Below are positions 23,365 to 26,235 of a stretch of DNA of 64,000 nucleotides, in pieces. The stretch lies in the NCBI RefSeq assembly GCF_003334255.1, contig NZ_QOWU01000002.1; one strand, written 5' to 3'. Source of the stretch: Escherichia coli (lineage in GTDB: Bacteria; Pseudomonadota; Gammaproteobacteria; Enterobacterales; Enterobacteriaceae). The position numbers and the translations under genes are program-made. The number at the start of each line of letters is the position of its first letter. Within the stretch, counting starts at the first letter, position 1. The notes below the pieces were generated by a model that had not been told where the DNA came from, made no database searches, and was given only the letters and a program-made list of their open reading frames with translations.

Positions 23365-24324
23365 ATGAAGCCGGAAAACAAATTACCCGTTCTGGACCTT
23401 ATTTCTGCTGAAATGAAGACCGTTGTGAATACTCTTCAGCCGGATTTACCGCCCTGGCCCGCAACGGGAACGATTGCTGAGCAACGACAGTATTACACGC
23501 TTGAGCGCCGATTCTGGAATGCGGGCGCTCCAGAAATGGCAACCAGAGCTTACATGGTTCCAACAAAATATGGGCAGGTGGAAACACGTCTCTTTTGTCC
23601 GCAGCCAGATAGCCCGGCGACGCTATTTTATTTGCATGGCGGCGGTTTTATTCTCGGCAATCTCGATACCCACGATCGCATCATGCGCCTGCTGGCAAGC
23701 TACAGCCAATGTACGGTGATTGGTATTGATTACACCCTTTCACCTGAAGCGCGTTTTCCGCAAGCGATAGAGGAAATTGTGGCTGCTTGTTGTTATTTCC
23801 ACCAGCAGGCGGAGGATTATCAAATCAATATGTCCCGCATTGGCTTTGCCGGTGATTCCGCAGGTGCCATGCTGGCGCTCGCCAGTGCGTTGTGGTTGCG
23901 TGATAAACAGATCGATTGCGGTAAAATTGCGGGTGTTTTGCTGTGGTATGGGCTTTACGGATTACGGGATTCCGTGACTCGTCGTCTGTTGGGCGGTGTC
24001 TGGGATGGCTTAACGCAACAGGATTTGCAGATGTACGAAGAGGCATATTTAAGCAACGACGCGGACCGCGAGTCGCCGTATTACTGTCTGTTTAATAATG
24101 ATCTCACTCGCGAAGTTCCGCCCTGTTTTATTGCCGGGGCGGAGTTCGATCCGCTGCTGGATGACAGCCGTCTGCTTTACCAGACGTTAGCGGCGCATCA
24201 GCAGCCCTGTGAGTTCAAACTCTACCCAGGCACGCTGCACGCCTTTTTGCATTATTCACGGATGATGAAAACCGCCGACGAGGCTCTTCGCGACGGCGCT
24301 CAGTTCTTTACCGCTCAGCTTTAG
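23365..24324 (+). CDS. aes: Acetyl esterase (alpha/beta hydrolase)
   Basis: 319-aa ORF with HGGGF and GDSAG motifs. Confidence 0.94.
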
Positions 24325-25283
24325 CGATACGCGGCAACAAGATTAGCCATCATTTCGATATGTTCCGGCGTGGCATTAAGCGCCGGAATATATTCATATT
24401 TTTTCCCGCCGGCACCGAGGAAGACCTCACGGTTTTGCTCGGCAATCTCTTCCAGCGTCTCCAGACAATCCGCAGCAAAGCCCGGGCACATCACCTGAAT
24501 ATGACCTACGCCTTTTTCTCCGAGCATTTTCAGCGTTTCGTCGGTATAAGGCATCAGCCAGGGTTCCCGACCAAAGCGCGACTGAAAGGTCATCATCACT
24601 TTTTCCGGTGCCATCCCCAATGCGGAAGCCAGTTCACGAGTCGTTGTGCGGCAACGTTGCGGGTAATCATCGCCTTCATCTGCATAACGCTGGGGAATGC
24701 CATGATAAGAGAGCAGTAGCAGATCCGGTTCGCCATGTTTGGCAAAAGAAGCGCGTACGCTGTTCGCCAGTGCATTAATGTAATCGTGGTTATCGGCGTA
24801 ATCACGTATAAACGATATCCCCGGAATGCTACGTTTGCGCGCCAGAATGCGTGCCAGTTCATCCCATACCGCACCGACCGTAGAACAGGAGAATTGCGGA
24901 TAAAGCGGCAGCACCACAATATGATCTACATGCTCTGCCAGGAGTTCATCTACGGCGCTTTCCAGTGATGGCGAGCCGTAGCTCATTCCCAGCGCTACGG
25001 GCATCTCCGGTAAACGTTGTGCCAGCGCCTGCTGTTGCTGGCGGCTGTAAACCATCAGCGGCGAGCCACCTTCCATCCAGACAGAGGCATACAGCTTCGC
25101 CACACGCGGCGAGCGCAGCGGCAAAATCACGCCGCGCAGCAATGGCCACCATAACAACCGTGAGGTATCAACCACGCGTCTGTCGCTTAAAAATTGTTTC
25201 AGATAGCGTTTTACCGCTTCAGGTGTGGGGGCATCGGGCGTACCCAGGTTTGCCAGCAGGATACCGGTTTTAGTCTGACGCAT
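24321..25283 (-). CDS. hemH: Ferrochelatase
   Basis: 320-aa ORF matching recalled HemH; stop codon overlaps aes stop. Confidence 0.94.
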
Positions 25284-25518
25284 TACCGCCTCTTATCGAT
25301 TCAACTTGTTGATAATTGTAGCGGAAAAGTGAGGAAGAAGAACTAATTGCTGTGAGAGGTCAAATCAGAAAAAGGAATAGCGCAGATTGAGGTTTTTGTA
25401 AAAGGCCGAATGAATATCCGGCCTGAGATTGCTGATAAGTTTGCTTGTGCGGGCCTGTTCCCCTCACCCTAACCCTCTCCCCGAGGGGGCGAGGGGACTG
25501 TCCGTGCGCGCTTTCGAA

Positions 25519-26235
<717 letters not shown>

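Follow-up and report, generated by a model that had tools for sequence, protein, structure and literature searches.

A probable passenger copy of the BoxC repeat between the adk stop codon and the mapped adk terminator of Escherichia coli

The closest described relatives of the structure considered here are the short intergenic repeats which have been known under three names. According to Holder et al. 2015 (PMC4666352), the TMECO elements are the same as the BoxC elements of the 1990s (Bergler 1992) and the PIT elements of Hoyne and Maher (2000, 2002); Bachellier et al. 1999 and Hoyne et al. 2000 belong to the further literature on BoxC and PIT. The published TMECO pattern is 5'-CCCTCNCCC N3-6 GGGNGAGGG N3 GGGNGAGGG-3' (Holder et al. 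2015, PMC4666352). In that work single-stranded TMECO oligonucleotides were found by CD and NMR to form a stable intrastrand triplex and not a G-quadruplex, the oligonucleotides being of the consensus type-A and type-B forms, from which the adk copy differs in loop 1 by the sequences of Table 1 (PMC4666352). With the complementary strand added the duplex wins, and DMS footprinting in living cells gave no protection and detected no triplex (Holder et al. 2015, PMC4666352). The introduction of the same paper also states that RNA cannot form purine-motif triplexes, and its authors proposed that the elements are sources of DNA instability (PMC4666352). As summarised there, Hoyne and Maher (2002) found PIT elements to act neither as promoters nor as terminators (PMC4666352).

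In our study, a stretch of 64,000 nucleotides of E. coli DNA, hereafter called the window, has been analysed around the spacer between adk and hemH. Both genes lie on the minus strand, adk at 25519-26163 (stop codon TAA at 25521-25519; NP_415007.1, MG1655 497175-497819) and hemH at 24321-25283 (ATG at 25283-25281), and they leave a spacer of 235 bp (25284-25518), the sequence of which is identical in E. coli K-12 MG1655. A reading made from the letters of the window (the sequence-only reading) had noticed a GC-rich imperfect palindrome about 20 nt after the adk stop, and this observation is borne out. The palindrome occupies 42 nt of the plus strand (25459-25500) at a distance of 18-23 nt from the adk stop, and a repeat search recovered its inverted arms at 25459-25469 and 25487-25497, which are 11 nt each and 91% complementary.

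The palindrome belongs to BoxC, a family of short repeats scattered through intergenic DNA in E. coli and related Enterobacteriaceae. The adk sense (minus) strand at 25460-25495 reads CCCTCGCCCCCTCGGGGAGAGGGTTAGGGTGAGGGG, which is letter for letter TMECO no. 6 at MG1655 497843-497878, and converting the window coordinates to those of MG1655 leads to the same site. Copy no. 6 is listed in Table 1 of Holder et al. 2015 at 497843-497878 as type A with one mismatch, and Supplementary Table S2 places it 23 nt from adk and 176 nt from hemH (PMC4666352). When written as a regular expression, the TMECO pattern is matched only once by the 64-kb window, on the minus strand at 25461-25495, and it also matches the MG1655 adk locus at positions 844-878 of the fetched locus. 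With the adk stop on one side (25519) and the hemH start on the other (25283), the copy is intergenic. The sequence-only reading had offered a small repetitive element as one of three options, and this option proved right, the palindrome being copy 6 of the 23 published for MG1655.

The core on the minus strand can be divided as CCCTCGCCCC-CTC-GGGGAGAGGG-TTA-GGGTGAGGGG. The C-rich block 1 (25486-25495) is followed by loop 1 (25483-25485), the G-rich block 2 (25473-25482), loop 2 with the type-A TTA (25470-25472) and the G-rich block 3 (25460-25469). Two partners are open to block 1: with block 2 the pairing has a single G·A mismatch, with block 3 a single G·U or G·T wobble. The latter pairing is the hairpin drawn in the sequence-only reading and is also the fold preferred by ViennaRNA. 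The core sits in a full dispersed repeat unit of about 55-64 bp on the minus strand (25444-25507), which has weakly conserved flanks (5' ..GCaCgGAC(G/A)GTC and 3' GAAcag.c.gcac). The extent of this unit follows from the other genomic copies, which align over 25444-25507, and blastn-short against nine MG1655 copies covers 25453-25507. A permissive Rfam search of 24800-26000 returned only sub-threshold chance matches, the best being Antizyme_FSE with 19 bits against a gathering score of 40.

The folding of the palindrome was compared with that of shuffled sequences. A 61-nt stretch is predicted by ViennaRNA to fold as RNA with -31.5 kcal/mol on the minus strand and -30.9 kcal/mol on the plus strand, and dinucleotide shuffles gave z-scores of -1.8 and -1.9 respectively, with 7 to 9 of 200 shuffles being as stable. 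As DNA, the z-scores were -1.2 and -0.5. The description given in the sequence-only reading is correct, but the hairpin energy alone is not above what a GC-rich sequence gives. The sequence itself, unlike the hairpin energy, is far beyond chance, since a 22-mer of the palindrome had no occurrence in 100 shuffles of the window and the 71-nt stretch around it (25445-25515) had 77,790 genomic matches by blastn. Of the 5426 complete E. coli genomes, 5409 contributed to these matches; a genome has 16 such places in the median case and never more than 27, which identifies the palindrome as a dispersed repeat.

For the comparison of individual copies, nine other single, MITE-free type-A copies of MG1655 were fetched and aligned with the adk copy. 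Among these 10 copies the core together with a 5' GTC and a 3' G is essentially invariant, and the adjoining 10-14 nt or so at either end show weak similarity; the invariance of the stems makes stem covariation uninformative. All the 10 copies are located downstream of at least one gene and none between divergent genes. They do not all face the same way relative to the transcript: those at pstA-pstB and yihS-yihR are antisense.

The relation of the element to the end of the adk transcript was decided from published Term-seq data. On the adk sense strand the palindrome continues into GAACAGGCCCGCAC, which has no U-tract, and the stem itself is directly followed by GAACAGGCCCGC. The spacer contains a separate hairpin about 60 nt beyond BoxC, with inverted repeat arms at 25403-25411 and 25416-25424 and a stem of 9 bp, which reads AGGCCGGAU-AUUC-AUUCGGCCU on the minus strand and then UUUAC, so that the last U of the stem and the following UUU make a UUUU run. 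The predicted RNA fold of this hairpin has an energy of -13.2 kcal/mol and a z-score of -5.1, and none of 200 shuffles was as good. In Supplementary file 1 of Adams et al. 2021, which spans three growth conditions, 3' ends are given at MG1655 497939/497940 (+) in three separate places (PMC7815308). These positions correspond to 25399/25398 of the window, the A and C after GGCCUUUU, immediately behind the hairpin 25403-25424, and they are the only Term-seq 3' ends of the spacer in those tables; none falls at 497820-497929, BoxC included (PMC7815308). Hence, BoxC is a part of the adk 3' UTR and not a terminator: it is transcribed within a 120-nt 3' UTR, upstream of the real adk terminator (25398-25424, minus strand), which is the hairpin 25403-25424 with its UUUUA and which combines a stem-loop, a U-run and a mapped 3' end. 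The sequence-only reading had rightly judged that the palindrome is not a canonical intrinsic terminator and had suggested mapping of the adk 3' end; the published ends fall at this separate hairpin with its U-tract, which that reading did not mention. Annotation of the adk 3' end should accordingly use the hairpin 25403-25424 and not the BoxC palindrome. A promoter and terminator consensus scan flagged nothing in the spacer, and as it also missed the real terminator with its tail of 4 T, it is not counted as negative evidence. Further along the transcript, a Rho termination region is reported at MG1655 498060 (about 25278 in the window), 5 nt into hemH (Adams et al. 2021, Supplementary file 2); it stands for bicyclomycin-sensitive read-through at this point and may have a bearing on hemH regulation.

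The comparative analysis of E. coli genomes has revealed two alleles of the spacer. A 451-bp spacer query was matched at full length in 2915 genomes, and most of the others gave two pieces spanning 104 bp less. The long allele is present in about 2914-2915 genomes, including K-12, DH5alpha and O111, and the short allele was found at full length in 2506 genomes, including ST131, UPEC 536, ST95, O145 and O157:H7; together they account for all but about 5 of the 5426 genomes, and about 46% of E. coli genomes have no BoxC at adk-hemH. Alignment with four short-allele E. coli delimits the difference to a segment of 157 bp in the long allele (25361-25517), consisting of BoxC, a unique stretch of 83 nt at 25361-25443 and the new terminator, against a segment of 53 bp with a different hairpin in the short allele. 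The short form is also carried by E. albertii and by one divergent Escherichia genome, and on this comparison the long form is taken as derived and the short form as ancestral. The short-allele hairpin has a perfect 12-bp stem, GCAGCAGAUCUGC-UUUC-GGGCAGGUCUGCUC, with z = -4.1 and a U-poor tail; the sequence after it is UCAUCCUCCUC, and it is not a canonical intrinsic terminator. For the few named strains given above, the adk-hemH spacer serves as a clean two-allele marker of K-12-/O111-type versus ST131-/536-/O157-type strains.

Once present, the long allele has been very stable. BoxC and both flanks are kept in 2914 of 2914 long-allele genomes, and 2883 of them have at least 99% identity across BoxC and flanks. 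The possibility that the whole 157-bp segment is a larger mobile repeat was rejected, as its non-BoxC part (25355-25445) is single-copy in E. coli; a search of 80 adk loci from other species gave no match to it either. A clean insertion with target-site duplication was likewise rejected, as comparison of the filled and empty sites shows a replacement, and the locus therefore says nothing about how BoxC moves. In one long-allele genome (NZ_CP128581.1, VG888-46E9) an IS3-family element is inserted between the adk terminator hairpin and BoxC, at about 25436/25437 and some 7 nt from the BoxC repeat unit.

The same slot was examined in other genera. The sequence-only reading had named, as what would refute it, the lack of a stable fold together with a motif that is unique and not conserved in other enterobacteria; the condition on the motif holds only by half, as the motif is not unique and BoxC is absent after adk in all the 80 other-species loci examined. 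In Salmonella, Citrobacter, Enterobacter and Klebsiella the adk-hemH slot is filled with unrelated hairpins or REP-like palindromes, and by direct reading BoxC is unlike the REP-like palindromes of the Citrobacter and Salmonella loci and does not carry the REP consensus. Citrobacter youngae and C. amalonaticus have one to several REP/BIME-like palindromes here, GCCTGATAAGCGCAGCGCCATCAGGC and GCCGGATGGCGG...CTTATCCGGCCTAC, which shows that different repeat families fill the slot in different genera. The edge of the variable slot is a block upstream of hemH (25284-25360, minus strand), ACCTCTCACAGCAATTAG...GCTACAATTATCAAC...AGAGGCGGTA followed by the hemH ATG, which the alignments showed to be common to both E. 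coli alleles, Salmonella and Citrobacter. From its conservation and position this block is probably the hemH promoter region, and the slot between it and the adk stop appears to be simply permissive.

On the other side of adk, the htpG-adk spacer of E. coli (26164-26343) has a plain hairpin and a T-run after the htpG stop. At the aligned position BoxC occurs in Enterobacter, Klebsiella, Kluyvera, Phytobacter, Lelliottia and some other Enterobacteriaceae; it was seen in 12 loci, at about positions 1280-1365. It is often present there as an inverted A+B pair, directly next to the conserved block upstream of adk, and hardly varies in its stems, unlike in loop 1 and the flanks. In Salmonella and Citrobacter the htpG-adk slot has REP-like palindromes instead of BoxC. 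The htpG-adk BoxC looks like an orthologous copy that has been kept across genera in a terminator slot.

Four other explanations have to be weighed against a passenger role of the adk copy. It can be supposed that BoxC itself terminates adk, either Rho-independently despite the missing U-tract or by causing a pause or letting Rho enter, and a GC-rich hairpin 18-23 nt past a stop codon would be in the right place for it. This is extremely improbable: the U-tract is absent, the Term-seq 3' ends avoid BoxC and instead lie 60 nt downstream at the canonical hairpin with its UUUU, and PIT elements had no terminator activity in the work of Hoyne and Maher (2002) as summarised in PMC4666352. A further proposal is that replication or repair is held up by a hairpin or triplex that forms transiently on single-stranded DNA, and that local rearrangement becomes more frequent, in which case BoxC would have caused the allele replacement at adk-hemH. 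This agrees loosely with the dimorphism of the locus, where the whole segment around BoxC was replaced, and with the single IS3-family insertion 7 nt from the repeat unit; Holder et al. 2015 also reported polymerase stops in vitro and a higher intergenic change at TMECO than at control loci (PMC4666352). The polymorphism looks, however, like one old event with stable inheritance afterwards, to judge from the retention of BoxC and flanks and the high identity across them, and the in vivo footprinting of Holder et al. 2015 gave no sign of a triplex (PMC4666352). Moreover, the slot is hypervariable in genera which have no BoxC there, so that the link can be the reverse one, in which variable and permissive slots gather repeats; retention and slot variability together suggest this direction. 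None of the 2914 long-allele genomes examined has lost BoxC since its acquisition, which is mild evidence against an instability role of the element, and we consider this proposal unlikely here.

The remaining two explanations give the element a role at the level of RNA or protein. REP elements act on mRNA stability or coupling in some operons, and BoxC may similarly be not inert but kept by preference directly after stop codons as a 3' UTR module, working through an RNA hairpin or through a choice between hairpin and G-quadruplex. Such a structure (the quadruplex from four G-runs) would slow 3'-to-5' exonucleases or RNase E and thereby tune adk mRNA stability or the coupling of adk and hemH. 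After the adk stop and before its mapped 3' end, the adk mRNA carries the element as the G-rich sense strand, the RNA hairpin is predicted to be stable, and all 10 single type-A MG1655 copies lie 3' of some gene. The minus strand at 25460-25482 reads GGGG-AGA-GGG-TTA-GGG-TGA-GGGG, a canonical G-quadruplex motif which covers both G-rich blocks on the adk sense strand; both strands of the window, 64 kb in all, have no second motif of the G3+N1-7 x4 form. Against this stand the tables of Adams et al. 2021 without any 3' end at or just after BoxC (PMC7815308), the terminator hairpin, which already gives a protective structure at the 3' end, the antisense copies at pstA-pstB and yihS-yihR, the unremarkable fold z-scores and the absence of the element at the essential gene adk in about half of E. 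coli. Such a module is quite unlikely on this balance. If it did operate, the swap of a U-poor hairpin for BoxC and a canonical terminator may have altered adk mRNA stability or hemH read-through as a phylogroup difference within E. coli, and the near-invariant stems of the orthologous htpG BoxC across at least six genera would reflect selection on structure. RAYT enzymes act on REP elements, and BoxC could by analogy be a putative site for a nucleoid protein or for a dedicated recombinase or transposase that mobilises it. The near-invariant 36-nt cores across copies and genera would fit recognition by a protein, and a mobilising enzyme would account for the spread of the repeat; on the other hand, Holder et al. 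2015 found no association with transposons, phages or plasmids (PMC4666352), and the later literature searched names no binding partner. We regard a protein site as very unlikely. The transcript stabiliser and the protein-binding site had been the other two options of the sequence-only reading, and they find no support in a locus where about 46% of E. coli genomes, as well as E. albertii, do without the element.

The best-supported reading is that BoxC is a dispensable, derived passenger copy in the adk 3' UTR, where it probably serves no needed function. A single strand with one C-rich and two G-rich blocks could adopt three folds, namely block 1 with block 2, block 1 with block 3, or an intrastrand purine-motif triplex of all three blocks, of which the last is known in vitro for single-stranded DNA. 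As RNA cannot form the purine-motif triplex, the adk mRNA would be limited to a hairpin or conceivably a G-quadruplex. RNA polymerase reads through BoxC, and the transcript ends about 60 nt further on at the separate hairpin and U-run. The element probably arrived within the 157-bp replacement of the ancestral post-adk hairpin, in a lineage that includes K-12 and O111, and has been inherited stably since then. It probably persists because the slot from the stop codon to the next promoter is permissive for a structure-prone repeat, be it neutral or selfish. We assign a probability of roughly 85% to this reading as a whole, that is, to the BoxC identity, the non-terminating passenger role in the adk 3' UTR and the derived 157-bp replacement taken together. 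Two observations speak against it: the stable sense-strand RNA hairpin predicted at -31.5 kcal/mol may have an effect on mRNA decay, and the near-invariant stems of the htpG BoxC, next to its varying loop and flanks, could indicate selection on structure.

As a discovery the palindrome matters little, for the element, its adk copy and its structural potential are already published and no function assigned to BoxC after 2015 was found in the literature searched. What our study adds is the history of the locus, with a derived 157-bp allele as opposed to the ancestral short allele, the placing of the repeat with respect to a mapped RNA 3' end, and the finding that all 2914 long-allele genomes have kept it.

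In comparison with the known systems, the adk copy agrees with the BoxC/PIT/TMECO family in its core, three-block architecture, type-A TTA loop 2 and intergenic multi-copy distribution, and nothing about the element itself differs from published BoxC. With an intrinsic terminator it has in common a GC-rich stem-loop just after a stop codon, but it has neither the U-tract nor the mapped 3' end, both of which belong to the hairpin 25403-25424. The boxC of nut/rrn antitermination sites and the boxC of pneumococcal BOX have only the name in common with it and represent unrelated sequences and systems. REP/BIME elements are, like BoxC, short GC-rich palindromic repeats after stop codons and occupy the same kind of slot. 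To our knowledge no RAYT-like enzyme, gyrase or IHF association exists for BoxC, unlike for REP/BIME. The BoxC sequence is unrelated to theirs and has no consensus of the GCCGGATG...CATCCGGC type, it is built from three blocks whereas REP/BIME elements have two arms, and with about 16-27 places per genome it is far rarer than they are.
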